This document shows positions 3,939 to 61,166 of a stretch of 64,000 nt of DNA, in pieces. The first letter of the stretch is position 1, and each line of letters begins with the position of its first letter. A program made the translations under genes and the position numbers. This DNA comes from an uncultured Gemmatimonadales bacterium (GTDB lineage Bacteria; Gemmatimonadota; Gemmatimonadetes; Longimicrobiales; RSA9), in the NCBI GenBank assembly GCA_963708135.1, contig OY970192.1:5152001-5216000 (forward strand), read 5' to 3'. The notes under the pieces are model-generated. The model was given only the letters and a program-made list of their open reading frames with translations, was not told the origin of the DNA and made no database searches.

Positions 3939-4150
3939 GAGACCTCGCGGGATGAGGTGCGTGGGTCACTTGTGACCCGAGCCGCGCCCAGGGATCCGAC
4001 GGCGGCGGAAGAGCCATGACTCCGGTGCAGGATGCGCCCAAGATACTCTCGGGCGGCCATCGCGCCATAACGACGTATCCGCGCCGTGCGGCTGCCCGAC
4101 GGCGCCGCCGCGCATCCGGTGGGCCGCCTCGCATCCGTCCCGCGCGCTGC

Positions 4151-4300
4151 ACCTGCCGGGCGGCGCTCCGGCGGGGAGGCCCTCTCCGGCCCTGCGGAAC
4201 GCTCGGCCCTCCCCCGGCCCGGCCCCGCCGCCGGCCACCCCCCTGCCTCGCGGACGGCAGTCCTCGGGCCTGCGAGGGCCTCGCCACCTGCGCGATCGTT
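4151..4300. repeat. Dispersed hairpin element, family H1, copy 1
   Basis: CTGCCGGGCGGCGCTCCGG(C/T)GGGGAGGCCCTCTCCGGCCCTGCGGAAC...CAGTCCTCGG...GAGGGCCTC(G/C)CCACCTGCGCGATCGT recurs at 6553-6690 and, truncated, at 25351-25403. Confidence 0.8.
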
Positions 4301-4530
4301 CGGCGGCCGGCGGAGGAGCGCGGCCGATGGCGTCGGTGCGCGGGCTGGCGCCGGCAAGGGCGCGAGGCCCGCCAGGCCGGCGGGGCGAATCGTCGTCGGC
4401 CCGGGGTCCTGCGTCCGTGCTCCGGGGCGCCGGCCTGGCGAGGGTCCGGCCGGAGAGGGAAGCGCCGGGCCGAGATCTCCCACTCTTGCCGGCCCTTCGC
4501 CACCGGCGTCTGGCTTCCGCCGCCAGGCGC

Positions 4531-5217
4531 TCAACGAAGCAGCCCGCACGCCACCGGCAGGGTCATGTACGCCGGCACGCCGGGCAGGGAGGCGACGCTG
4601 GCGGGGAGCGGCGTGTCCTCGGCCACGCCCTGGATGACGATGCTCCGGGTGGAGAGGTCGAGACGGCCGTTCGGGGGCAGGCGGGTGGTGCGAGGCGTGG
4701 ACGTGGTGCTGTCGGGGCGCTCGAGGTCGAGCAGCAGGTTCTCGGACGCGCCGGTGCGGCGGTAGTGCAGGGTGCCGTCGGCGAGGGCGAGGGGCTGGAC
4801 GGCGGAGCCGGCGAGCTGCGACTCGATGTCGCCATCCAGCGGGATGAGGGCGAGGCCGAAGGAGCGGAGCCCCTCCAGGATGTCGATGTAGCCGTCGCCG
4901 TTGGCGTCGTCGGCGGCGGTGGGGCAGCGGCCGAACGCGCGGATCTGAATGGGGTGCGGCCCGGGCGAGAGCCCCGCCGCATCGACGGCGGCGGAGAACG
5001 TGCCCGCGTCGATCGTGAAGGTGGCGGTGCCGGAGGCGGCGCGCGGCCCCGTCGCCTTCGGGTTCAGCGGCCGGAGCGTGGCGGTGTGGACGGCGGTCGC
5101 GGCGCAGCCTGCGGCGGCGAGCGCGAGGGCCAGGAGCGCGCACGTGAAGGCGACGCGGCCCCTCCGGCCTCCGACCCGCGTCTCCCCTATCCGGCCCGCC
5201 GCCGTCGCGCTCTCCAT
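4531..5217 (-). CDS. Hypothetical lipoprotein resembling Cu/Zn-SOD-fold proteins, with metal-binding His residues apparently lost
   Basis: C-terminal part of ORF 4531..6618 from ATG 5217. Lipobox-like LAAAGC, CPTAADDANGDGYIDILEG, LDLSTRSIVIQGV and terminal LPVACG. Confidence 0.6.
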   Translation of the reverse strand: MESATAAGRIGETRVGGRRGRVAFTCALLALALAAAGCAATAVHTATLRPLNPKATGPRAASGTATFTIDAGTFSAAVDAAGLSPGPHPIQIRAFGRCPTAADDANGDGYIDILEGLRSFGLALIPLDGDIESQLAGSAVQPLALADGTLHYRRTGASENLLLDLERPDSTTSTPRTTRLPPNGRLDLSTRSIVIQGVAEDTPLPASVASLPGVPAYMTLPVACGLLR

Positions 5218-6194
5218 TGCCGCTCCTCCGCCACCGGTTCCGCCGCCCCGCCCTCCTCGCATTCGGCGCCCGCCAGGGGGCCGCGCGGCTTGCGCGTCGA
5301 GGGGGAGGTGGTGATGAGCACCACCGCGGCGAGGATGACGGCACCGGCAAGGAGCATGCGCGCGGTGAGCGGCTCGCCGGCCAGCGCCCAGCCGAGCAGC
5401 ACGGCAATGACGGGGTTCACGTACGCGTAGGTGGCCACGCGCGTGGGCGCCACGTGGGCGAGCAGCCAGACGTAGGCGGTGAAGCCGATGAGCGAGCCGA
5501 AGACGACGAGGTAGCCGACCGCGAGCAGCGACGCGCCCGACACCCGCGCCGGCTGCAGCTGCCACAGCTCGCCCGAGACCGCCGCGGCCACGAGCGAGAG
5601 CACGCCCCCCGCCACCATCTCCATCGCGGTGCCGAGCAGCGCGGGGCGGGGCAGCGGCGCGCGCCGGCTGTAGATCGAGCCCGCCGCCCAGCACATCGAG
5701 CCGAGCACCAGGATCAGCGCGCCGAACCGGTCGATCCCGCCGCCGCCGAAGGAGCCGGGACCCACGAGCAGGCCGATCCCCGCGAGCCCCGCCGCGAGGC
5801 CCAGGATCACCCGCCCGCCCGGCCGGCCGCCGCCGCCCCAGACCGCATCGATCACGGTCATCCAGACGGGCACCGTGGCCACGATCAGCGCCGCGACGCC
5901 GCTCGGCACCACCCGCTCCGCGTGGGTCACCGCGCCGTTGCCGCACACGAGCAGCAGCCCGCCGATGATCGCCGCCGAGCGCCAGTGCACGACGCGCGGC
6001 CGCGGCGCCCCGCGCAGCCGCACGACGACGTACAGGATCCCGCCCGCCACGAGGTAGCGCCCCGCCACGAGCACGAACGGCGGCAGCGTGGCGATGCCGA
6101 TGCGCATCGCCAGGTAGGTCGAGCCCCAGATCAGGTAGATCGCCGCGAACGCGAGGGCGACGTGCCACGCGCGCGGTTCGCTGGTGTCGGTCAT
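5187..6194 (-). CDS. EamA/DMT-family transporter (YedA-like)
   Basis: MTDTSEP start at 6194. Motifs IYLIWGSTYLAMR, YLVVFGSLIGFTAYVWLL and TYAYVNPVIAVLLG, with about 10 hydrophobic segments. Confidence 0.92.
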   Translation of the reverse strand: MTDTSEPRAWHVALAFAAIYLIWGSTYLAMRIGIATLPPFVLVAGRYLVAGGILYVVVRLRGAPRPRVVHWRSAAIIGGLLLVCGNGAVTHAERVVPSGVAALIVATVPVWMTVIDAVWGGGGRPGGRVILGLAAGLAGIGLLVGPGSFGGGGIDRFGALILVLGSMCWAAGSIYSRRAPLPRPALLGTAMEMVAGGVLSLVAAAVSGELWQLQPARVSGASLLAVGYLVVFGSLIGFTAYVWLLAHVAPTRVATYAYVNPVIAVLLGWALAGEPLTARMLLAGAVILAAVVLITTSPSTRKPRGPLAGAECEEGGAAEPVAEERQWRARRRRAG

Positions 6195-6270
6195 GTCGGT
6201 CGAACGTCTCCGTAAACCTGGCCGTCCTGCGCGGTTGTCCCGTGCGATCCGGCGGCCTCGCCTCGCACCA

Positions 6271-6690
6271 GCCGGGCCGACTCGCGTCGCTCGCGCGCCG
6301 CGGCTGCCGGGCGGCGTTCCGCGGGGCCGTTCCGCGTCGCTCGCGCGCGGCGGCTGCCGGGCGGCGTCCAGCCGGGCCGACTCGCGTCGCTCGCGCGCCG
6401 CGGCTGCCGGGCGGCGTTCCGCGGGGCCGTTCCGCGTCGCTCGCGCGCGGCGGCTGCCGGGCGGCGTCCAGCCGGGCCGACTCGCGTTGCTCGCGCGCCG
6501 CGGCTGCCGGGCGGCGTTCCGCGGGGCCGTTCCGCGTCGCTCGCGCGCGGCGGCTGCCGGGCGGCGCTCCGGTGGGGAGGCCCTCTCCGGCCCTGCGGAA
6601 CTCGCGGCTCCGCCGCATCCGCCCGACCCCGCCGCCGCTCGGACAGTCCTCGGTCCTCCGAGGGCCTCCCCACCTGCGCGATCGTCCGTG
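6271..6690. repeat. Three 100-bp tandem units (each two ~50-bp subunits) running into hairpin element H1 copy 2
   Basis: Units start at 6271, 6371 and 6471 and are near identical. A perfect 15-bp inverted repeat follows: GGTGGGGAGGCCCTC (6571-6585) and GAGGGCCTCCCCACC (6660-6674). Confidence 0.9.
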
Positions 6691-6754
6691 GGTTGGACCC
6701 GAGCAGCACCCGCGGACGGCCGGTCACGTGCGGTTTCGTCGAGTCGGCGCTGCC

Positions 6755-7117
6755 GCACCGAATCGCAAACGGCCGCTCGGCGGCCGGGACCTCCCGGCGG
6801 TTGTGTGCGCCTGGCGCACCGAATCGCCAACGGCCGCTCAATGGGCGCGACGTCCCGGCGGTTGTGTGCGCCTGGCGCACCGAATCGCCAACGGCGGCTC
6901 GACGGCCGGGACGACTCGGCGGTTGGATGCGCCTGGCGCACCGAATCGCCAATGGCCGCTCAATGGGCGCGACGTCCCGGCGGTTGTGTGCGCCTGGGGC
7001 ATCGAATCGCCAACGGCGGCTCGACGGCCGGGACGTCCCGGCGGTTGTGTGCGCCTGGCGCACCGAATCGCCAACGGCCGCTCAATGGGCGCGACGTCCC
7101 GGCGGTTGTGTGCGCCT
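6755..7117. repeat. Six-copy 61-bp tandem array of imperfect palindromes with alternating A/B cores
   Basis: GAATCG recurs at 6760, 6821, 6882, 6943, 7004 and 7065. Arms are GCGCACCGAATCGCC and GGCGGTTGTGTGCGC. Confidence 0.9.
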
Positions 7118-7384
7118 GTCATCGGCAGCGCCGCCCGGGCCGCCTGCCAGCCGGGGCAGACCGAATCCCGCCCCTCGCCCGGCGGTTCCGGACGGCTGCG
7201 GAAGATACGCACGCACGCTTCACCCGCGAGACCCCGCGGCGCCCCGACGCCGCGCCGTTGCCGTACAGGCCGCCCGCAGCGCGTCCGTTGACGGTGCCCG
7301 TGCCCGACCGGTCGGTTCGGCAGCCGGAGAGCCCCCCGCGCGAGCACGGGAACGTCGTCGCCCCGCGTCCCCGCGTCGGGTGGG

Positions 7385-7795
7385 GGGCCAGGTGGGCCCG
7401 GGGAGGGTGGTCCGGGGGAGGGCGGGCCCGGCAGGGCGGGTCCCGGCCAGCGTGGGCCCGGGGCAGGGTGGTCCGGGGCAGGGCGGGTCCCGGCCAGCGT
7501 GGGCCCGGGGCAGGGTGGTCCGGGGGAGGGCGGGTCCGCGCCAGGGTGGGCCCGGGGAGGGTGGTCCGGGGGAGGGCGGGCCCGGCAGGGCGGGTCCCGG
7601 CCAGCGTGGGCCCGGGGCAGGGTGGCCCGGGGCAGGGCGGGTCCCGGCCAGGGTGGGCCCGGCCAGGGTGGTCCGGGGCGGGGCGGGTCCCGGCCAGGGT
7701 GGGCCCGGCCAGGGTGGTCCGGGGCGGGGCGGGTCCGGCCAGGGTGGGCCCGAGGAGGGTGGTCCGGGCGAGGGCGGGTCCGGGGCAGGTTGGAG
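7385..7795 (+). repeat. G-rich tandem repeat of 15-16-bp units (GGGTGGGCCCGGGGCA-like)
   Basis: About 25 degenerate units with strong G strand bias. Confidence 0.85.
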
Positions 7796-7993
7796 GGCGG
7801 CCCGGGCGAAGTCGAGCGTCTCCGGCCGCTCGCGCAGGAACGCGCGGTAGTCGTCGGAGCCGGGGCCGTTTCCCTCGGGATCGGGGCCGGGCGGAGGGTG
7901 CGCCGGGGGCAGGCTGGCGGGGCAGCCACGCAGGGTAGCCCGGGGCGGGTAGGGTCCACTAGCTTGCGCGCGAACCTCAACGAGGGCGAGCCG

Positions 7994-9064
7994 ATGGAGC
8001 TGAGCTACGAGCCGCTCGACCTGCCGACGGCGCACGAGTTCGTGATCGCGCGGGAGGGGGCCAGGCGGCGGCGGAACGTGATCGTGCGGCTGCGCGATGA
8101 CGACGGGGTCGAGGGCTGGGGCGAGGCGCCCGCGACGCCGTTCTACGGCGAGACGGCGGACACCGTCATGACGGTCATGCCGGTGCTCGAGGCGGCGCTG
8201 CGCGGCGCGGCGGACGGGGACCTGTGGGCGATCGGGCGGATCGAGGCGGCGCTGGTGGGCGCGGTCGGCGACGCCGGCCCCGAGGTGGCGGCGGGCGGCG
8301 GCTTTCCGGCGCACCCGGCGGCGCGCGTCGCACTGTCCATGGCGCTGCACGACCTGCTGGGGCGGCGGGTGGGCGCGCCGCTCTGGCGGCTGTGGGGGCT
8401 GGACCCGGGCGCGGCGCCGCCCTCCTCGTTCACGATCGGGCTGGACGAGCCCGAGGCGATGCGGCAGAAGGTGCGCGAGGCGGCGGGCTTCCCGATCCTC
8501 AAGGTGAAGCTCGGCACGGAACGCGACGAGGCGCTCCTCGCCCTCGTCCGCGACGAGGCCCCCGACGCCGTGATCCGCGTGGACGCGAACACCGGCTGGT
8601 CGGTCGAGCGCGGCCTCGCCATGCTGCCGGTGCTGGAGGAGTACGGGGTGGAGCTGGTCGAGCAGCCGCTTCCCGCCGGCGAGGTCGAGGGGGTACGTCG
8701 CCTGAGAGAGAAGGCGACGATGCCGCTCATCGCGGACGAGTCGTGCCGGGTGGCCGCGGACGTGCCGCGGCTTGCCGGCGCGTACGACGGCGTGAACATC
8801 AAGCTGGCCAAGTGCGGCTCGCTGCGGGAGGCGCTGCGGATCGTGGCGGTGGCGCGCGCGCACGACATGAGGGTGATGCTCGGCTGCATGGTGGAGACGA
8901 GCATCGCGATCGCCGCGGCCGTGCAGCTCGCGCCACTCGTGGACTACGTGGACCTGGACGGCGCGCTGCTGCTGGCCGAGGACCCGTTCCAGGGGCCGGG
9001 GGTGAAGCCGGACGGGACGCTGCGGTTCAACGGCGAGGCGGGGCTGGGGGCGGAGCCGGCCTGA
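7994..9064 (+). CDS. Dipeptide epimerase (L-Ala-D/L-Glu epimerase, enolase superfamily)
   Basis: Motifs GWGEAP, KVKLG, RVDANTGW, EQP, IADES, NIKLAKCG, MLGCMVET and DLDG. Confidence 0.92.
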   Translation: MELSYEPLDLPTAHEFVIAREGARRRRNVIVRLRDDDGVEGWGEAPATPFYGETADTVMTVMPVLEAALRGAADGDLWAIGRIEAALVGAVGDAGPEVAAGGGFPAHPAARVALSMALHDLLGRRVGAPLWRLWGLDPGAAPPSSFTIGLDEPEAMRQKVREAAGFPILKVKLGTERDEALLALVRDEAPDAVIRVDANTGWSVERGLAMLPVLEEYGVELVEQPLPAGEVEGVRRLREKATMPLIADESCRVAADVPRLAGAYDGVNIKLAKCGSLREALRIVAVARAHDMRVMLGCMVETSIAIAAAVQLAPLVDYVDLDGALLLAEDPFQGPGVKPDGTLRFNGEAGLGAEPA

Positions 9065-9100
9065 CGGCCGTTCGGCCCCGTGGCCCCTTTCCCCTTCCGG

Positions 9101-10603
9101 TCATGGCGTCCGCTGGCCCTCGATGTCCCGGCCGTTCTGGTGCAGCACGAGCGAGGTCACGGCGCCGCTCGCATCGCGGCGGAACTCGAGGGTGGCATCC
9201 ACGACCTTGTAGAAGAAGCGGTCGCCGCCCTCGGCGAAGATGGGGAGCGCGCCCTGGCCGGTGATCTGCGCGCTCAGGCGGTCGTCGGCGCGGGCGATGG
9301 TGAGGGCCACGCCGGGCGCCAGCTGGTAGCGGCCGACGTAGGCGTCGAGCTGGGTGGGCGTGAGTTGCACGACGGTGTGGCGCGCCGGCGGCGGCGGCGG
9401 CACGAGGGGGATCGTCGCGTCGAGCAGGTGCAGCCCGATGTCGTCGGCGCCGGTGGCACTGTTCGAGAGCATGATCACCCCGACCCGGCGGCCGGGCTGG
9501 TAGCCGACGAAGGCGTGGTAGCCTCCGGTCTCGCCGTTGTGCCAGACGACACGCACTCCGTCGTCGCCGTCGCGGACCATCCAGACGAGGCCGATGCGCG
9601 TGGCCGGCACCGGGGTCGGGCGCCGGGGCAGGCGCGCCATGGCGAGATCGCGCGCGACGGGCGCCATGGTGTCGGCCGCCAGTGCGGCCTCGAGGTAGCG
9701 AAGCATGTCGTGGGCGGTCGAGCGCAGGCCGCCCGCGGCGGCCAGGGTCGCCATGTCCCAGTTGGCGACGGTGTCGCCCGCGGCGTTGTGGCCGGGCGCG
9801 AGGCGGGCGCGCTCACCGGAGGTCAGCGTGATGCGCGTGTCCTTCATGCCGAGCGGCCCCGCGATGCGCGCCCGCACGAGCGCCTCGTAGCTCGTGTCCG
9901 CACGGCGCGCCAGGGCCAGCCCGAGGAGCCCCACGCCGAGGTTGGAGTACTCGTACTGCGCGCCGGGGTCGCGCGGCAGCGTGTACCCGTCCAGGAAGCG
10001 GTAGAGGTCGGCCACCGTGTAGCCCCCGTACGGATCCTCGACGTCGGCCGGCCGCAAGTTGGTCGGCAGCCGCGGCAGCCCCGACGACTGGGTGGCCAGG
10101 TCGAGCAGCGTGATGGCCCTGCCGTCCTTCTGCGGCACCCGCACGCTATCCGGCAGCAGCGCCGCCACCGGCTGGTCCAGCCGCACCTCCCCGCGCCGCA
10201 CCATGTCCGCCAGCAGCGTCGCGGTGAACGTCTTGGTCACGGAGCCGATCTCGAAGACGGTGCCCGCGTCGGGCGCGGGCGTGCCGGGGCCGTCCAGCGT
10301 GCCGGCGGAGAGGAAGCGGGCGCCGTTCGCGTCCACCACGCCCGCCACGATGCCGGCGCCGGACAGGAGCTTCACGCGCGCGTCGAGCAGCCGCTGGATC
10401 ACGGAGTCCGGCGGCAGTGCCGACGGGCCCGCGGGCGGCGCGGCGCGGGTCGCGCCCGCCGGTGCGTGGGCGGCCGCCGTGCTGCCGTCCTCCGCCGGCC
10501 GCGTCTGCTGTGCCGCGAGGCGCGCCGCGCCGGCGGCGGTGAGGGCGAGGAGCGCGGCGGTCGCGGCCGTCGTCGCCTGGCGAATGAGAGTCGTGGTCGG
10601 CAT
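9101..10603 (-). CDS. Serine hydrolase (class C beta-lactamase/peptidase family) with C-terminal DUF3471-like domain
   Basis: Signal peptide, FEIGSVTK (SxxK), YSN, WHNGETGG, and C-terminal LDAYVGRY. Confidence 0.88.
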   Translation of the reverse strand: MPTTTLIRQATTAATAALLALTAAGAARLAAQQTRPAEDGSTAAAHAPAGATRAAPPAGPSALPPDSVIQRLLDARVKLLSGAGIVAGVVDANGARFLSAGTLDGPGTPAPDAGTVFEIGSVTKTFTATLLADMVRRGEVRLDQPVAALLPDSVRVPQKDGRAITLLDLATQSSGLPRLPTNLRPADVEDPYGGYTVADLYRFLDGYTLPRDPGAQYEYSNLGVGLLGLALARRADTSYEALVRARIAGPLGMKDTRITLTSGERARLAPGHNAAGDTVANWDMATLAAAGGLRSTAHDMLRYLEAALAADTMAPVARDLAMARLPRRPTPVPATRIGLVWMVRDGDDGVRVVWHNGETGGYHAFVGYQPGRRVGVIMLSNSATGADDIGLHLLDATIPLVPPPPPARHTVVQLTPTQLDAYVGRYQLAPGVALTIARADDRLSAQITGQGALPIFAEGGDRFFYKVVDATLEFRRDASGAVTSLVLHQNGRDIEGQRTP

Positions 10604-54177: not shown

Positions 54178-55395
54178 TCAGCGCAGGTTGGGGTTCGACG
54201 CCACCTCGTTGGCGCTGATCGGGATGCAGCTGTCGCGCCCGCTGAGGAAGTCGTTGTGCGCCGGCCCGGTCTCCTGGTACCAGCGGCGCAGGTCGTAGAA
54301 GCGGCGGTTCTCGAGCCACAGCACCGCGCCGCGCTCCCGCTGCAGGTCCTGCCAGGCGGTGGCCAGGTCGCCGGCGGGCAGCGCCGCCAGCCCGTAGGCC
54401 GCGCGCTCCTGGTTCATGAGGCCGTACGCCCCGTTCACGTCCTGGTTCCGCAGCGCCGCCTCCGCCCGGATGAGCAGCATCTCCGTGCCCTTCGAGAGCG
54501 GGATGTTGGCGTCCAGCGTCGCGTACTTCTGCTGCCGGAAGAACGGCGTCTTGCCGTCCTGCCCCGTCTGCAGCTTGCCGCCCGAGGTCAGCACCGTGTC
54601 CCACGGCACGCGCGGATCGGCGTCGCTGTTCCCCGCCCACTGCGTGTTGTAGACCGTGTACTCCCGGCGCGTCTGCGTCTCGTAGGCCAGCCCGTTGTTC
54701 TCGCGGCTGGTGTTGAGGGAGAAGATCGCATCGTACTCGAAGCTCGTGGGCACCTGCTGCGCGTCGGCCGCGGCGGCAGCCCAGTCGCCGAGGTCGGCGC
54801 GGATGGAGGCGCGGCCGGCGAGCGCGGCGTTCGTCAGCGTCGCATCCCCCTGCGCCTGCGCCAGCGCGAGCGCCTGCGTGAACGCGGAGTCCGCGCGCTG
54901 GAAGTGGACCGTGTAGGCTTGCGCCGCCCCGCCGTCGATGACCGCGGCGCAGACGTTCTCGCCCAGCAGGCGGTTGGCGTAGCCCATGTAGAGGTAGGCG
55001 CGCGGGGCCAGCGAGCTGGCGGCGAAGCCGGCGCCGAGCACCTCCCGCAGCCGCTGGATCCCGGTCTCGGCCACCCAGCGGGCGCGGTGCATGTCCGCCC
55101 AGTCGCCGTTCACGTTCTCGGGCGGGATGATGCCGCGGTAGTAGTAGCCCTCGTTGGCGTAGTTGCCGGCGTGGGCGAGCTCGTCCGACATGACCGTGCT
55201 CGACTGCGCCAGGTCGCTCATGGCGACGGAGAGGTCCGCCGACATCCCGGTCACGAGCCCCGGCATCGCGCTCGCCGTGCTCAGCGCATCGTCCGGCAGC
55301 GGGCCGGGGTTGGTCACCGTCAGGTCGCAGGCCGCGAGCCCCAGCGCCGCGGCGAGCAGCAGAGCTCCGCGGAGCCGCATCGTTCGATTCATCAT
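54178..55395 (-). CDS. RagB/SusD-family lipoprotein
   Basis: Lipobox LAAC, EMLLIRAEA and ERGAVLWLENRRFYDLRR. Lies directly downstream of susC. Confidence 0.9.
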   Translation of the reverse strand: MMNRTMRLRGALLLAAALGLAACDLTVTNPGPLPDDALSTASAMPGLVTGMSADLSVAMSDLAQSSTVMSDELAHAGNYANEGYYYRGIIPPENVNGDWADMHRARWVAETGIQRLREVLGAGFAASSLAPRAYLYMGYANRLLGENVCAAVIDGGAAQAYTVHFQRADSAFTQALALAQAQGDATLTNAALAGRASIRADLGDWAAAAADAQQVPTSFEYDAIFSLNTSRENNGLAYETQTRREYTVYNTQWAGNSDADPRVPWDTVLTSGGKLQTGQDGKTPFFRQQKYATLDANIPLSKGTEMLLIRAEAALRNQDVNGAYGLMNQERAAYGLAALPAGDLATAWQDLQRERGAVLWLENRRFYDLRRWYQETGPAHNDFLSGRDSCIPISANEVASNPNLR

Positions 55396-55411
55396 GGTCC
55401 GTTCTCCGCGG

Positions 55412-58348
55412 TCAGAAGTTCAGGCGCAGCGTGGCCAGGAACGTGGCCGGCGTCGGCAGCACGTAGTAGTCGCGGCGTGAGAAGCTGCCGTCCCGGAAAT
55501 CGGCGACCTCCGGGTCGGTGCCGCTGTACTTCGTGCTCGTGAGCAGGTTGCGCCCGGCCACGGTCAGCGTGGCTCCGTGCGCGCCCGGGACGAGCCCCTC
55601 CGGGATCTGGTAGCTCAGCGAGACGCTGCGCAGCTTGAAGAAGTTGGTCGGCTCGACCCACAGCGCGTAGTCGCGTACGCCGCTGGTCAGCGTGCAGCGG
55701 GCGCGGTCGAGCGCGTTCGTCCCGTCCAGGGCGCTCGGGTCGGTCTTGGACGCGCGGATCGCCGCCTGCGCGGCGTAGCACGGCTGCCACTCGGACTTGT
55801 ACGCGTTCTGGTAGGCGAGCGCGTTCAGCAGGTGCCCGCCCAGCTGCCACTCGCCCATGGCGTCGAAGGTCAGCCGCTTCATGAGCGTCAGGGTCGTGGA
55901 CGGCGCGATGATCTTCGTGGGGTACGCCGCGCCGATGTAGGCGTTCTCCTCGAACTGCGGGTCCGCGAGCTCGGTCGGGTTCGTGACCTTGCGGCCGAAG
56001 TAGGAGGGCACCGCGTAGCCCTCCTGGACGTAGGTCCGCGAGAGCGAGTTGACGGTGATCACCTGCCCGCCCAGGTCGCCCGCCTTGCTGTTGATCGTCG
56101 ACAGGTTCAGGCGCGCCGACCAGTCCAGGCTCTCGCGCCGCAGCAGCCCCACGTCCAGGCGCAGCTCGATGCCGTTGTTGAAGAGCTGCCCCACGTTCTC
56201 GAGCTGCCGGTTGGAGAAGCCCTGCGAGGGCGGGTAGACCACCGGCACCAGCGCGTCGAAGGTGTGCTGCCGGTAGTAGGTGAAGTCCACGCCCAGCCGC
56301 CCCTGCAGGGCGCTGCCCTCGAAGCCGAGCTCCGTCTCGCGCGTGCGCTCCGGGCCGAGGTCGGCATTGCCGATCTGGTCGGGCGTGAAGCCCGGCTGGC
56401 CGTTGTCGCCGGCCACCGGCAGCCAGGTCCGCACCGCGTCGAACGCGCCCGGCGCCTTGCCCGACTCGCCGATGGCGCCGCGCAGCTTGAAGCTCTCGAC
56501 CGGCTTCGGCCACCAGGCGTAGTCGGAGAGCACGTACGAGGCGCTCACCTTCGGGTACGGCTGCAGCCCGAAGCTCTGCCCGAACGAGCTGTTGCCGTCC
56601 ACGCGCAGCCCGCCCGTCACGAACAGCCGGTCCCGCAGCGCCACCGTCTCCTGCAGGAAGAAGCCCGCATTCACGACGCGCAGGTCCTCCGAGTTCGTCA
56701 CGTCGCGGCGCGCGGCCGAGGTCAGCGTCGGCGCGCCCGGCCCGGAGAAGTCCGCCGCGTCCACCGAGGTGGCCTGCGTGCGGCTGTCGAAGATCTGCCC
56801 GCCCCAGGACGAGGTGGACGCCAGCCCGAACAGCTCCGCGTGGAAGGAGCCCGCGTAGTCGGCGGAGAGCAGCGTCCGCTTCCAGCCATCCCACCACATC
56901 TCGCCCAGCGGGACGCGCAGGAAGCCGAACGGGTCGAGCGTCTGGTTGTCCAGGTTGTTGTAGTCGAAGCCCACGTTCAGCTTGTTGCTGAACCTGGAAT
57001 TGGGCGTGTAATTCACGAGCAGCCCGGTCACGTAGTGGTCCGCCTTCGTCGTGGCGTCCGTCGTGAAGATCTCGGAGTTGTGCACGCACACCATCTCCGG
57101 ATCACTGCAGCCGCCCGCCTTGAAGTTGCCGTCCGGCCCGCGCGAGACGTTCAGCAGGAAGCCGCTGCCGTTGTTGCCATCCTGGATCCACTGCGTGTTG
57201 CGCCGCGTGTAGGCCGTGTTCAGCCCGAGCTGCAGCGCCCTGGTCGGCCGGAACGAGAAGTTGCCGCGGAACCCGCCGTCGGCGCTGCCGCCGTTGCCCA
57301 CCACGCCGCGGCTGTCCCCGTAGTTGCCCGACATGTAGTAGGTCACGTCGCCCGCGCCGCCGCGCACCGACAGCCCGTAGCGCTGCACCGCCCCGTGCTT
57401 CAGCCAGCTCCCGCTGGACGGGCAGGTCGGATCCTCGAAGCGCGTGCCGTCCCCGATCACCAGGTTCGGCCCGCTGCACTCGTTCACGAACAGCCCCGTC
57501 GGATCGCTCGACGGCCCGACGTGCCCCATCCGGTTGAAGCCCTCCGAGACCTCCGCGTTCCAGCGCGGCTCCCCCGTCACACCGCTCTTCGTGAAGATCT
57601 GGATGATCCCGCCCGACGCCTCCGTGCCGTACAGCGTCGTGGCCGCCGGCCCCTTCACGATCTCGATCCGCTCGATGTCCTCGGGCGAGATGTCGTTCAG
57701 CGGCATGTCCGCCTGCCGCGCCGCGATGCTCGTCGGCGCGTGCCCGTTGTAGATGCGGATGCCGTCCACGTACACGATCGGATCGTTGCCCTGGCTGATG
57801 CTGTTGTTGCCGCGCAGCCGGATGCTCCCGCCCGCCCCCGGCTGACCCGAGTTCTGCAGCACCGTCACCCCCACCGAGCGGCCGGCCAGGATGTCCTGCG
57901 GCGTCGCCACCGGCGCCCGCGAGATCTCCGCCGCCCCGATCGCCGAGACGCTGTTGCCGATCTCCCGCTTGCGCGTCTCCCCCGTGGCCGTGACCACCAG
58001 CTCGTTCAGCGCCACCGCCGTCTGCGCGAGCTCGAAGTCCGCCGTGGCCGACGCGCCCGCCGTCACCGTCACCTGCTGCTCCGCCGGACCGTAGCCCAGC
58101 ATCGTCACGCGCACCGTGGCCGCACCGGCCGCGACGTCGGGGATCACATACGCCCCGTTCGCGTCCGCCAGCGCGCCGCGGCCCGTGCCGACGACCGCCA
58201 CCTGCGCCCCGGACAATGGCCGGGTCGTCGCGGCATCCTTGATGGTGCCGCGGATCGTGCCCCGCTGCTGCGCGCCGAGTCCCGCCGGCATCGCGGCGAG
58301 CGCGACGAGCAGCACGACGGCGGCCCCCATGGCCGTCCTGCCTCGCAT
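55412..58348 (-). CDS. SusC/RagA-family TonB-dependent receptor
   Basis: IRLRGNNS, DIERIEIVKGPAATTLYGTEASGGIIQIFTK, GNADLGPE and terminal F. Start at 58348 after AGGAGG. Confidence 0.94.
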   Translation of the reverse strand: MRGRTAMGAAVVLLVALAAMPAGLGAQQRGTIRGTIKDAATTRPLSGAQVAVVGTGRGALADANGAYVIPDVAAGAATVRVTMLGYGPAEQQVTVTAGASATADFELAQTAVALNELVVTATGETRKREIGNSVSAIGAAEISRAPVATPQDILAGRSVGVTVLQNSGQPGAGGSIRLRGNNSISQGNDPIVYVDGIRIYNGHAPTSIAARQADMPLNDISPEDIERIEIVKGPAATTLYGTEASGGIIQIFTKSGVTGEPRWNAEVSEGFNRMGHVGPSSDPTGLFVNECSGPNLVIGDGTRFEDPTCPSSGSWLKHGAVQRYGLSVRGGAGDVTYYMSGNYGDSRGVVGNGGSADGGFRGNFSFRPTRALQLGLNTAYTRRNTQWIQDGNNGSGFLLNVSRGPDGNFKAGGCSDPEMVCVHNSEIFTTDATTKADHYVTGLLVNYTPNSRFSNKLNVGFDYNNLDNQTLDPFGFLRVPLGEMWWDGWKRTLLSADYAGSFHAELFGLASTSSWGGQIFDSRTQATSVDAADFSGPGAPTLTSAARRDVTNSEDLRVVNAGFFLQETVALRDRLFVTGGLRVDGNSSFGQSFGLQPYPKVSASYVLSDYAWWPKPVESFKLRGAIGESGKAPGAFDAVRTWLPVAGDNGQPGFTPDQIGNADLGPERTRETELGFEGSALQGRLGVDFTYYRQHTFDALVPVVYPPSQGFSNRQLENVGQLFNNGIELRLDVGLLRRESLDWSARLNLSTINSKAGDLGGQVITVNSLSRTYVQEGYAVPSYFGRKVTNPTELADPQFEENAYIGAAYPTKIIAPSTTLTLMKRLTFDAMGEWQLGGHLLNALAYQNAYKSEWQPCYAAQAAIRASKTDPSALDGTNALDRARCTLTSGVRDYALWVEPTNFFKLRSVSLSYQIPEGLVPGAHGATLTVAGRNLLTSTKYSGTDPEVADFRDGSFSRRDYYVLPTPATFLATLRLNF

Positions 58349-59021
58349 AGTCCGCCTCCTGGAAAGTCGATCGAGCCCCGCTTCGGGTGCGTTCTGGAAT
58401 ACGTTGCTGGATACCTTCTGCCGCCGGTGAGACGGGAGAACGGCCCCGATCGGGCACGGCGGCCACCGGTGTTCGCGCGTGCGACCGGTACCGCCGCCAT
58501 GCGGGCCAGCCCGCCCGAGTATGAAACGAGATCCAGTCAACGCGCGCGCGCGACCGGCGGCAATGCCGATCGCGCGGGGGGCGCTGTGGGGGAGTTCACC
58601 ACACGGGCGGCGAACGCGGCGGTCGCTCCAGTGTACGACGTTGGCGCCGTTGGTGGGGGCGGGTCCGACACCTCGCGGTGCGGAATTCCGGACAGGATTT
58701 CCTCCGCTGCCCTACATGCGGCGGCGGGCGCGCACCGTTGATTGGCGAGACCGGAAGGCGAGACGAGTGTTGGCCTGCCTGGGAAGCGCTGCCGCGCTGG
58801 ACCCGGCTTGCTTCCGGGCGGTACCTCCTCGACACGGGTGGGTGGGTGGACCGAGATCGTGACAGCTCTGTTGCGCCGCAGGGTGGCGCCACCTTCCCGC
58901 GACTCCTCTCGCGGGCCGGGACGTTCCCGGTCCCGCACTCCCGCCGGGCGGATCGGTCCCGGCCCGCGAGCCTGCAGCCGGGCGCGCGGCTCTTCGTCTC
59001 CACATTGTTCGGAGGTGCACC

Positions 59022-60437
59022 ATGCGGGACGCGTCTCGTGGCCGTGCCGGCCGCGCCGTAGCGGTCGGGTTCCTTCTGTTGCTGAGCGCGTCGCCGACGC
59101 TGGCGGCCGGCCGGCGGGGCGGCGGGCTGTGGATGGGTGGGCGGAGGGTGGCGCTGTCCGCGGCAACGCGGGCGCTGCCGATTCCGAGCTTCTCGCGTCA
59201 GACGAAGCTCGCGTGCAACGTTTGCCACACCGCGTTCCTTCAGCTCACGCCGTTCGGCCGGCTGTTCAAGCTGAATGGCTACACGATGACGGGGATCGAG
59301 AAGGTGACGGCGGGGAAGGGAGCCGCGGGTGCGGGCCTGTCGCTCGACCTGATTCCCCCCGTCTCGGTAATGGTACAGGCGTCGTTGACCCACGTATCGG
59401 ACGCGCCGCCGGGCACGGAGAACGACCAGGCGGAGTTCCCCGACCAGATGAGCCTGTTCGTGGGCGAGGCGATCACGCCGCGCATCGGCACGTTCCTGCA
59501 GTTCACCTACGCGGGACCGGACGGCTCCTTCGGCTGGGACAACGCGGACATCCGCTTCGCCAACCACGCGAGTATCGGCGGCCGCCCGATCATCTACGGC
59601 GTGACGCTGAACAACAACCCCTCTGTCCAGGACGTGTGGAACAGCACGCCGGCGTGGAGCTGGCCCTTTGCGGGCTCGAGCGTAGCGCCCGGCCCGGCGG
59701 CGGCCACGGCCGTCGAGGGCGACCTGGCGCAGCGCGTGGCGGGGCTCGGCGGCTACATCTTCTGGAACAACCTGCTCTACGCCGAGCTGACCGGCTACCG
59801 CTCGGCGCCGCAGGGGGGGCCCCATCCCGCGGATGAGACGGCGGAGCAGACCATCGAGGGGGTGAGCCCGTACTGGCGGGTGGCGCTCTCGCACGACATG
59901 CAGACGCAGTCGATCGAGGTCGGCACGTTCGGGCTGTCAACGCGCGAGTACCCCTCCGGCATCACGGGGCTGACCAACGGCTACACCGATATCGGGCTCG
60001 ACGGGCAGTATCAGTACTTCTTCGCCAACTCCAACATCACCGCGCACGGCAGCTACATCCGCGAGAAGCAGAACCTGAACGCCGGCTTCCAGTCGGGTGA
60101 TGCGGCCAACAACGACGACGTGCTGCACAGCTTCAAGGCGGATGCCGAGCTGGTCCTGCAATCCGGTATCGCGCCCGGGCTCGGCTTCTTCGCCACCTCC
60201 GGGGGCGCCGACCCGGGCCTGTACCCGGAAGGCGAGGTGGACGGCAGCCTCACGCACAAGCCGAACAGCAGCGGCTTCATTGCCGAGCTGGACGTGAACC
60301 CCTGGCTGAACACTCGCCTCACCGCGCAGTATGTGCTCTACAGCAAGTTCAACGGCGCGAGCACCAACTACGACGGCGCCGGGCGCAACGCGTCCGACAA
60401 CAACACGCTGTACCTGCTGGCCTGGCTGGTCTTCTGA
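59022..60437 (+). CDS. Cyc2-like fused monoheme cytochrome c / outer membrane beta-barrel
   Basis: Signal peptide, then IPSFSRQTKLACNVCHTAFLQLTPFGRLFKLNGY (CXXCH at 59214-59228), a beta-strand-rich body and C-terminal YLLAWLVF. Confidence 0.85.
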   Translation: MRDASRGRAGRAVAVGFLLLLSASPTLAAGRRGGGLWMGGRRVALSAATRALPIPSFSRQTKLACNVCHTAFLQLTPFGRLFKLNGYTMTGIEKVTAGKGAAGAGLSLDLIPPVSVMVQASLTHVSDAPPGTENDQAEFPDQMSLFVGEAITPRIGTFLQFTYAGPDGSFGWDNADIRFANHASIGGRPIIYGVTLNNNPSVQDVWNSTPAWSWPFAGSSVAPGPAAATAVEGDLAQRVAGLGGYIFWNNLLYAELTGYRSAPQGGPHPADETAEQTIEGVSPYWRVALSHDMQTQSIEVGTFGLSTREYPSGITGLTNGYTDIGLDGQYQYFFANSNITAHGSYIREKQNLNAGFQSGDAANNDDVLHSFKADAELVLQSGIAPGLGFFATSGGADPGLYPEGEVDGSLTHKPNSSGFIAELDVNPWLNTRLTAQYVLYSKFNGASTNYDGAGRNASDNNTLYLLAWLVF

Positions 60438-60480
60438 TCCGCCGGGCGTGAACAGGAGGGCAACGACTCTCACTGGAGGT

Positions 60481-60945
60481 ATGATGCGCATCATGCACGC
60501 TCTCGCGAGGACCGGCCTCATCGCCGCGGCGGTCCTGCTCCCGGCCGGCCTGGCCCGGCCCGCACAGGCGACACCGGCGGCCTCCGCCCCGCGCGGCGCC
60601 CGGCCTGCCGTGCCGCAGGACACCGGGCAGGCCGCGGCGCCCTGTCCGGAGATCACCAAGGACCTCGTCGGCCAGGGCAAGAAGCTCTTCACCGGCTCCG
60701 GCAACTGCTTCACCTGCCACGGCGCCAACGCGAAGGGGACGCCGCTCGCCCCGGACCTCACGGACAAGACCTGGCTCCAGATCGACGGCAGCTATCCCGC
60801 CATCGTGAAGCTGATCCACACCGGCGTGCCGCAGCCCAAGGAGCACCCCGCGCCGATGCCGGCGATGGGCGGCGCGCAGCTGAGCGAATCCCAGATCTGT
60901 GCCGTGGGAGCGTACGTCTTCTCCCTCACGCACCCGATCTCCTGA
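60481..60945 (+). CDS. Periplasmic monoheme c-type cytochrome
   Basis: Signal peptide, GKKLF...CFTCHG...APDL, and candidate axial Met in MPAMGG. Confidence 0.88.
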   Translation: MMRIMHALARTGLIAAAVLLPAGLARPAQATPAASAPRGARPAVPQDTGQAAAPCPEITKDLVGQGKKLFTGSGNCFTCHGANAKGTPLAPDLTDKTWLQIDGSYPAIVKLIHTGVPQPKEHPAPMPAMGGAQLSESQICAVGAYVFSLTHPIS

Positions 60946-61166
60946 CGGCCCTCTGCCGCCGGCGGGTGTGCCCCGCCGGCGGCCCCACGGCGCCGCTCCT
61001 GTCCACGTCCGGGGAAGGCGCCTACATTGACCTCCTCCCGGAAACTCATCCGGTGTCAATGCCGCGCGGCCCCTGAGGGGGGCGCGCGGAACCGGCCGGG
61101 CCCCCCGTCGCATTCTTCCTAGGATTCAGCCGCGGCCCGGCGAGGGCCACGGGAAAGGTCGGCGCG

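Follow-up and report, generated by a model that had tools for sequence, protein, structure and literature searches.

The 64,000-nucleotide stretch of DNA analysed here (the window; contig OY970192.1, positions 5,152,001 to 5,216,000, from an uncultured Gemmatimonadales bacterium) carries near its right end a two-gene module for candidate extracellular electron transfer. The first gene, P0001, encodes a fused cytochrome-porin resembling the outer-membrane Cyc2 proteins of iron oxidisers, and the second, P0002, encodes a small exported cytochrome. The features of the module, in window coordinates, are:

59022..60437 (stop codon included), + strand: cytochrome-porin gene P0001, an intact open reading frame (ORF) of 471 aa for a fused monohaem cytochrome-porin
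59022..59108, + strand: signal-peptide-like N-terminus of P0001, residues 1 to about 29, with a basic start, a hydrophobic core and TLA/A, read by eye
59184..59285, + strand: haem-binding segment P55-T88 of P0001, PSFSRQT-KLA-CNVCH-TAF-LQL-TPFGRLFKLNGYT
59361..60434, + strand: predicted 16-strand β-barrel of P0001, residues 114-471, ending in WLVF (AlphaFold2 model)
60481..60945, + strand: gene P0002, 154 aa, putative exported monohaem class-I cytochrome c
60955..60983, + strand: perfect 12-bp GC-rich hairpin, 10 nt past the P0002 stop codon, with no T-run

The two genes probably form one operon, with the GC-rich hairpin closing the unit. The features pointing to this unit are a GGAGG site at both genes (59011-59015, 6 nt ahead of the P0001 ATG, and 60475-60479, preceding the P0002 start, both read from the sequence), the gap of 43 bp between the genes and the terminal hairpin. 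The stretch 60940-61000, which includes the hairpin, folds with −39.2 kcal/mol (z −3.53; 2 of 200 shuffles fold as well), and the hairpin is likely the end of the transcript. The scan for T-run terminators did not pick it up, and a scan for sigma-70-type promoters gave 0 sites. One terminator-like match, at 59047-59068, was rejected: it lies inside the coding region, and one such match was found against 0.9 expected by chance. The P0001 ORF is not a chance one, because thousands of homologues conserve its frame. The first-pass annotation of this DNA had described a 471-aa exported protein with PSFSRQT-x3-CNVCH and a C-terminal Phe, which we read at 59022-60437, and, about 45 bp downstream, an exported monohaem cytochrome with CFTCH, MPAMG and two extra Cys; both proteins and their residues are as described, with a gap of 43 bp.

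The signal-like N-terminal segment of P0001 reads MRDASRGRAGRAVAVGFLLLLSASPTLA/A in the translation, and the extended N-terminus is common to the 80%-identical homologue P0003. A linker of about 25 residues separates it from the haem segment, of which P55-Y87 reads ALPIPSFSRQTKLACNVCHTAFLQLTPFGRLFKLNGY and contains the sole CXXCH of the protein, C65-N-V-C68-H69. The C-terminus is aromatic (...YLLAWLVF, ending in Phe). Invariant columns of the family include P55, S56, R59, Q60, T61, C65, C68, H69, F78, G79, R80, K83 and Y87. Keffer et al. 2021 characterise Cyc2 by a signal peptide, a single CXXCH, no fewer than 365 aa and a fused 16-strand OprO/OprP-like porin, and further by an upstream motif (AX)PXFAR[Q/K][T/Y], said to be unique to Cyc2, and a PXL four residues after CXXCH (PMC8406198). 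The proline of PxL is said to help stabilise haem (PMC8406198). Since PXL also occurs in many other cytochromes according to the same source (PMC8406198), we regard it as supportive rather than Cyc2-unique. P0001 has a single N-terminal CXXCH, 471 aa against the required 365 or more and, in the model, the 16-strand porin.

Homologues of P0001 are numerous. Of 8000 candidates from a word-indexed search, 4840 clusters scored at E ≤ 0.001, and the top one is 80% identical. Searched exhaustively, the representatives clustered at 50% identity yielded 2498 matches at E ≤ 0.001, of which 423 reach E ≤ 1e-30. In species genomes, at least 601 loci of the family were confirmed by a scan, and 77 related loci were kept for analysis. 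By record title, 44 of the 77 are Gemmatimonadota (Longimicrobiales included) and 26 are Bacteroidota-type (Bacteroidales, Ignavibacteria, Lentimicrobiaceae, Prolixibacteraceae and the like), while the remaining seven comprise four with other phylum labels and three unclassified. Between phyla the identity to P0001 is 47-60%, across the whole barrel. Some of the related genomes (loci L008, L020, L021 and L048) hold a second cytochrome-porin copy a few kb from the first, and both copies frequently have a small cytochrome c gene of their own.

A motif census was made on the 119 nearest homologues and on 150 wider representatives, 132 of them with CXXCH and the rest mostly fragments. In each of the 119 nearest homologues one CXXCH is present, and P.[FY].R[QK][TY], a relaxed form of the motif, stands three residues ahead of it. 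The three central positions read FSR in 78, FTR in 22 and FAR in 13 of them, as compared with FAR in 81/132 wider representatives, and the strict motif PXFAR[Q/K][T/Y] is found in 13/119 against 75/132. PxL is present in 113 of the nearest homologues (consensus PQL) and LxL in 6. By this census P0001 belongs to a subclade marked by the A-to-S change, within a family that more widely carries the exact Cyc2 signature.

The closest named relatives are borne on plasmids. In the plasmid collection all 15 of 15 matches cover at least 80% of P0001 at 31-41% identity, in Ralstonia solanacearum, Caballeronia, Paraburkholderia, Acidiphilium cryptum (pACRY03), Methylocystis and others. The Ralstonia megaplasmid protein aligns end to end (40% identity, E 2e-103); its motif is AVPAFARQT-GMA-CMACH-VSF-PEL, and the spacing of three residues before the first Cys equals that of P0001. 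Keffer et al. name Ralstonia and Burkholderia among the genera sampled heavily for their Cyc2 data set (PMC8406198), and Acidithiobacillus Cyc2 has been linked in a similarity network to a dense homologue cluster from Burkholderiales, Hyphomicrobiales and Acidiphilium (PMC10654088). The homologues of P0001 come from genera or groups named as Cyc2 holders and may be among the proteins of those data sets. Our searches found no functional characterisation of the plasmid-borne homologues. Two of the plasmid records share the same gene block: L082 (CP084173.1, filed as Acidithiobacillus ferrooxidans) and L079 (NC_009469.1, Acidiphilium cryptum pACRY03) both carry U32 peptidases, SCP2, a transposase, the cytochrome-porin and a c-type cytochrome, and they fall in the same replicon cluster with identical match statistics. 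This points either to plasmid sharing between acid-mine co-inhabitants or to a mis-assigned record.

The barrel, on whose presence the first-pass annotation had made its proposal depend, is predicted with 16 strands. The AlphaFold2 model of P0001 was built on a 20-sequence alignment (A1; 60% mean column identity, long invariant blocks) and has a mean predicted local distance difference test (pLDDT) of 70.2 and a predicted template-modelling score (pTM) of 0.70. It contains 16 strands of at least 9 residues between residues 114 and 470, and its low-confidence parts are the signal peptide, the haem segment and the first linker. With Foldseek the model matches best, among PDB entries, the 16-strand porins Omp32, Omp-Pst2, OmpU, OmpC and OmpF (E 7e-9 to 4e-7, template-modelling (TM) score 0.50-0.63 normalised to target, identity 8-14%), with OprO (4rjw) at rank 39. 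The nearest ESM Atlas cluster having a Pfam family carries Porin_O_P on 20% of its members. For Cyc2 structure a 2026 review uses only models and porin templates (PMC13741234), with which the blank PDB sequence searches for P0001 agree.

The second gene, P0002, is best started at an ATG at 60481, 60484 or 60493 and ends at 60945; the mechanically called ORF begins at 60331, 150 nt too early (60331-60480), and so overlaps the end of the porin gene. Its product has a signal-like N-terminus, the haem site C76-F-T-C79-H80, the stretch PAPMPAMGG with M126 and M129, and two further cysteines, C55 and C140. Against Pfam it scores 40.7 bits with PF00034 Cytochrom_C (cut-off 21.3) and 35.6 bits with PF13442 Cytochrome_CBB3 (cut-off 27). 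By this score, the one CXXCH and the candidate distal Met, P0002 is assigned as a class I monohaem cytochrome c. A match to the NCBIfam model of cytochrome 579 (NF033864; 28 bits, E 1.6e-6) is local to residues 41-87 and far below the cut-off of 280 bits, which rules that identity out. The cytochromes adjoining the Gemmatimonadota porin genes are one family with P0002, at 25-62% identity. Both C55 and C140 are present in P0002 and in the 62%-identical neighbour at locus L005, and both are absent from the other 12 aligned sequences. The disulfide that had been proposed between the extra cysteines of P0002 is accordingly narrowed: the residues exist, the pair occurs in two aligned sequences, and these two make a C55-C140 bond suggestive at most. 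A complex prediction with P0001 50-471, P0002 55-154 and two haems scored 0.02 and 0.01 against a mark of 0.32, which speaks neither for nor against binding.

Synteny in relatives, which the first-pass annotation had proposed as a check, connects the porin gene with electron carriers. Flanking ORFs of the 77 loci were clustered, recurring clusters were named by Pfam and hidden Markov models (HMMs) were built from them, with matches counted by envelope coordinates; the greedy gene calls, rough for high-GC loci, were used only for finding recurring families. Up to 700 bp from the porin gene, 39/77 loci encode a small monohaem cytochrome c and 9 a plastocyanin/azurin-type cupredoxin; 48 encode one or the other. 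Within 3 kb, a CytoC_RC-like dihaem protein is encoded in 4/77 loci and a Rieske protein in 8, the latter beside a cytochrome b fused to a dihaem cytochrome c. Short-distance counts of cytochrome b itself are unusable, as its HMM also matches small cytochromes c via the fused c-type domain. On the annotated plasmids, c-type cytochrome genes follow the porin homologue directly (one in Acidiphilium, one in Caballeronia and three in Methylocystis), and the Caballeronia plasmid has a HiPIP gene upstream of it. Cytochrome c, cupredoxin and HiPIP also accompany cyc2 in the iron-oxidation operons of acidophiles (rus operon, PMC10654088). The recurring carriers are the strongest evidence here and support a probable redox conduit over a plain porin. 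A separate observation concerns loci L020, L028, L055, L058, L060, L061 and L069, labelled Bacteroidota, Ignavibacteria or Aminicenantes: there the module lies beside the Rieske gene and a ~650-aa cytochrome b/dihaem cytochrome c fusion, often with an M13 peptidase gene directly upstream.

Altogether, we conclude that P0001 and P0002 very probably constitute a Cyc2-family outer-membrane electron conduit working with periplasmic carriers. The first-pass annotation had called the module a Cyc2-type fused cytochrome-porin with a co-transcribed periplasmic cytochrome, and the architecture, the motif and the full-length homology to motif-perfect named relatives support this call.

The host genome is a single contig of 5.45 Mb, 97.65% complete, with the module gene in one copy. 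A search for the RuBisCO large subunit found none in it, other carbon-fixation pathways not being searched; this fits the heterotroph-like genome that had been surmised from the window. Three strong matches were obtained for COX1, one match for FixO and two for cytochrome b. One COX1 match adjoins the FixO gene, and a cbb3-type oxidase can therefore be placed about 200 kb from the module. The Rieske/cytochrome b genes are located at about 1.30-1.31 Mb, as against 5.21 Mb for the module. With three haem-copper oxidases and no RuBisCO, the host has a path by which electrons of periplasmic cytochrome c can reach oxygen, and it lacks Calvin-cycle autotrophy. Among sequencing runs, one DNA run, from a soil metagenome, contains the window sequence, and no RNA run is listed.

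Observed or computed here are the structure of the genes, their family, the modelled fold and the recurring redox neighbours; haem attachment, topology, the partnership of P0001 with P0002, the direction of electrons and the substrate are inferred, as follows. P0001 would be exported, with one haem covalently bound at C65-x-x-C68-H69, and would insert as a barrel of 16 strands, the haem segment lying at the periplasmic mouth or within it. P0002, soluble in the periplasm, would ferry electrons between the porin haem and the respiratory chain, here the cbb3-type oxidase, the two other haem-copper oxidases and the cytochrome b complexes. By analogy with characterised Cyc2, dissolved Fe(II) would be oxidised at the cell surface and its electrons passed inward to an oxidase. 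As the genome lacks RuBisCO, this may supply extra energy, or confine Fe(II) oxidation to the exterior of the cell, instead of serving autotrophic growth. Taken as a whole, a Cyc2-type operon leading Fe(II)-derived electrons inward to an oxidase is the explanation that we favour by a modest degree; for Fe(II) as the physiological donor, which rests on that analogy, we see not quite an even chance.

The same components could be run in reverse, from quinol through Rieske/cytochrome b and cytochrome c to the porin haem and on to soluble or chelated Fe(III), humic quinones or Mn oxides. Such an outward conduit would suit the 8/77 related loci with a Rieske gene beside the cytochrome b/dihaem cytochrome c fusion and the many carriers that are metagenome-assembled genomes (MAGs) labelled Bacteroidales, Ignavibacteria, Lentimicrobiaceae or Aminicenantes, the more so as oxidation and reduction are described as indistinguishable from annotation (PMC11316326). 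However, all characterised family members are oxidases, and the potential of Cyc2PV-1, +208 mV, is high for an outward reductase (PMC8406198). Moreover, this host has three haem-copper oxidases, and its Rieske/cytochrome b genes do not lie beside the module. We consider outward flow quite unlikely.

The inward, Fe(II)-driven operation of the module has several points to contend with. Searches of Pfam, NCBIfam and the PDB with the P0001 sequence gave no relevant match. The link to the characterised oxidases is indirect, running via motif, fold and literature, with the reference Cyc2 known by description, and function has been verified for only a few Cyc2 proteins (PMC8406198). In the literal upstream motif PSFSRQT is one residue off, with S58 for A, six of seven positions and the register matching. 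The PXL motif is lacking, L73 replacing the family proline (H69-TAF-L73-Q-L75), a substitution shared by only 6/119 nearest homologues. In the model, pLDDT falls below 50 at residues 22-56 and 58-62, so that the haem segment is of low confidence. None of the five carrier families was found in the available flanking DNA of 21/77 loci, several of which are on 2-4 kb contigs, and among the sampled genomes from the window's own family, the six others gave no match to the cytochrome-porin gene. The P0001 family also occurs in MAGs labelled Bacteroidales, Ignavibacteria and Aminicenantes; many such groups are anaerobes, a poor fit with aerobic Fe(II) oxidation. Finally, barrel conservation in this family far exceeds that in published descriptions of Cyc2 and may reflect another substrate or constraint. 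The first-pass annotation had seen the Cyc2 motif pattern as a whole in this protein. The relaxed motif, the single CXXCH and the homology to motif-perfect relatives bear that out, whereas S58 and the loss of the PxL proline do not, and L73 had been overlooked.

The replacement of a near-invariant proline by L73, together with the absence of the gene from the six sampled genomes of the same family, might be taken as signs of a remnant gene, decaying or without redox function; its product could, for example, be a plain porin in which the haem site failed with the loss of the PxL proline. Against this, the frame is intact and CXXCH and all the other invariant columns are retained, the 80%-identical P0003 has the same L and is full length, and the gene of the partner cytochrome, preceded by a ribosome-binding site of its own, is likewise intact. 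A remnant is thus highly improbable.

A further alternative keeps the Cyc2-type conduit and changes its donor to Mn(II), reduced humics or quinones, or sulfur or arsenic species, the conserved-barrel lineage being then a separate functional branch. The conservation of the barrel across phyla, unusually high when set against the weak conservation described for Cyc2 porins (PMC8406198), points in this direction, as do the A-to-S change that marks the subclade in the motif census and the hosts, which are mostly heterotrophs and not known iron oxidisers. Yet positive evidence for another substrate is lacking, and the neighbours (cytochrome c, cupredoxin and HiPIP) are of the same kinds as in iron-oxidation operons (PMC10654088). 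On balance a donor other than Fe(II) seems rather unlikely. It is the Rieske/cytochrome b neighbours, the typically anaerobic host labels and the conserved barrel that keep the outward and the non-iron explanations alive. A broader form of them, which we hold to be doubtful, is that the PSF(S/T)RQT conserved-barrel lineage would be a distinct, under-counted conduit of heterotrophs, with a partner other than dissolved Fe(II) or with outward flow. Carried by Gemmatimonadota and Bacteroidota/Ignavibacteria of soils and sediments, it would often be connected to cupredoxins or to a Rieske/cytochrome b-c complex. If this is true, the P0001 lineage is not one more iron oxidase.

The distribution of the gene within Gemmatimonadota is patchy. 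In a phylum sample of 301 genomes, a tally that includes one unpublished genome (G157), 57 match P0001 at E ≤ 1e-10. The matches concentrate in two other families of the class (34/125 and 17/69 genomes), and in two other sampled families of the same order they number 1/47, a weak N-terminal match, and 0/4. Such a spread could mean lateral acquisition. The sample also has weak matches confined to the N-terminus (E about 1e-11), of which six were fetched (L084-L089). Five of these have frames of 369-490 aa, one running off its contig, with the motifs PAFSRQT, PAFARQT, PSFTRQT, PAFARKY or PAFARRY, all three residues ahead of CXXCH; one of the six aligns with P0001 at 25% identity over residues 43-203 only. 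A conserved cytochrome segment with a divergent barrel is the pattern described for the Cyc2 superfamily, and these matches show the P0001 lineage to be one of several putative Cyc2-type lineages in Gemmatimonadota.

The basic finding is not new, and the module is a sound, ordinary member of a known family. Cyc2 homologues in putatively heterotrophic Gemmatimonadota MAGs have already been published on the basis of annotation only (PMC9769843, PMC11316326, PMC10367259, PMC13055281). Our literature search found no functional test of Cyc2 in Gemmatimonadota, and a search of PMC12442345 found no mention of Gemmatimonadota or heterotrophs. What is added here is modest: a complete genome, a defined partner, synteny counts and a point on strict filtering. 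Because a strict PXFAR filter would drop 106/119 close relatives of P0001, the lineage may be under-represented in published trees. Metagenome studies widely take Cyc2 genes as a marker of microbial iron oxidation, and the holders of this lineage are mostly heterotrophs. A single-copy module with a defined partner and known oxidases in a complete genome therefore offers a clean case for questioning marker-based claims of iron oxidation in Gemmatimonadota.

The module is transcribed divergently from a SusC/SusD pair, as the first-pass annotation had it; the minus-strand genes span 54178-58540:

58541..59021, no strand: intergenic region between the SusC-like gene (−) and the cytochrome-porin gene (+), a divergent 481-bp spacer
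55412..58540, − strand: SusC-like gene with the domains CarboxypepD_reg, Plug and TonB_dep_Rec
54178..55395, − strand: SusD_RagB gene, paired with the SusC-like gene and upstream of the module

Downstream of the module are genes for an MFS transporter, a DinB-like protein and an ELFV dehydrogenase. Elsewhere in the window, the G+C content rises to 0.75-0.79 at 4001-10000, against about 0.70-0.74 in the rest.

Among the closest known systems is, by description, the Cyc2 system with the dihaem c4 cytochrome Cyc1 (PMC8406198, PMC10654088, PMC13741234). It shares with the module a signal peptide, one N-terminal CXXCH in the context PxF(A/S)RQT...CxxCH...(P)xL...FGR, a fused 16-strand porin of about 440-490 aa and, immediately after it, the gene of a c-type cytochrome. 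In contrast, P0002 has one haem where Cyc1 is a dihaem c4, and the module operon is devoid of rusticyanin and cox genes; P0001 has S for A and has lost the PxL proline. The host, a neutral-soil heterotroph-like organism with no RuBisCO, likewise differs. Cyc2PV-1 of Mariprofundus ferrooxydans and the Cluster 1 Cyc2 of neutrophilic iron oxidisers, again by description (PMC8406198, PMC7029218), have the same fused monohaem architecture and motif logic as P0001.

The plasmid-borne proteins, annotated as 'cytochrome C' or hypothetical, are the closest named sequences (31-41% identity over 87-91% of the query, E 1e-49 to 3e-83) and have in common with P0001 the barrel motifs NNNPTVxDVWN, PYWR and NYDGxGRNAxDNNT and the C-terminal F. 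Unlike P0001, they possess the exact AxPxFARQT motif and the PxL proline, and they reside on mobile or secondary replicons in Proteobacteria. Within Gemmatimonadota, L087 and L089, with PAFARKY/PAFARRY-type motifs, match P0001 only over the N-terminal ~150 residues at 25% identity, and P0001 is therefore not close to that motif type.

The general and phosphate-selective porins Omp32, OmpU, OmpC and OprO have the barrel fold in common with P0001, but they carry no haem segment and are only 8-14% identical to it. Cyt572/Cyt579 of Leptospirillum, a Cluster 3 Cyc2 homologue with a periplasmic cytochrome, shows the same pairing of an outer-membrane cytochrome-porin with a soluble cytochrome as the module. 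MtrAB, MtoAB and PioAB also transfer electrons across the outer membrane through a barrel, as proposed for P0001, but these are two-protein systems with a decahaem cytochrome in a 26-strand barrel (PMC10654088), whereas P0001 has one haem fused to a 16-strand barrel.

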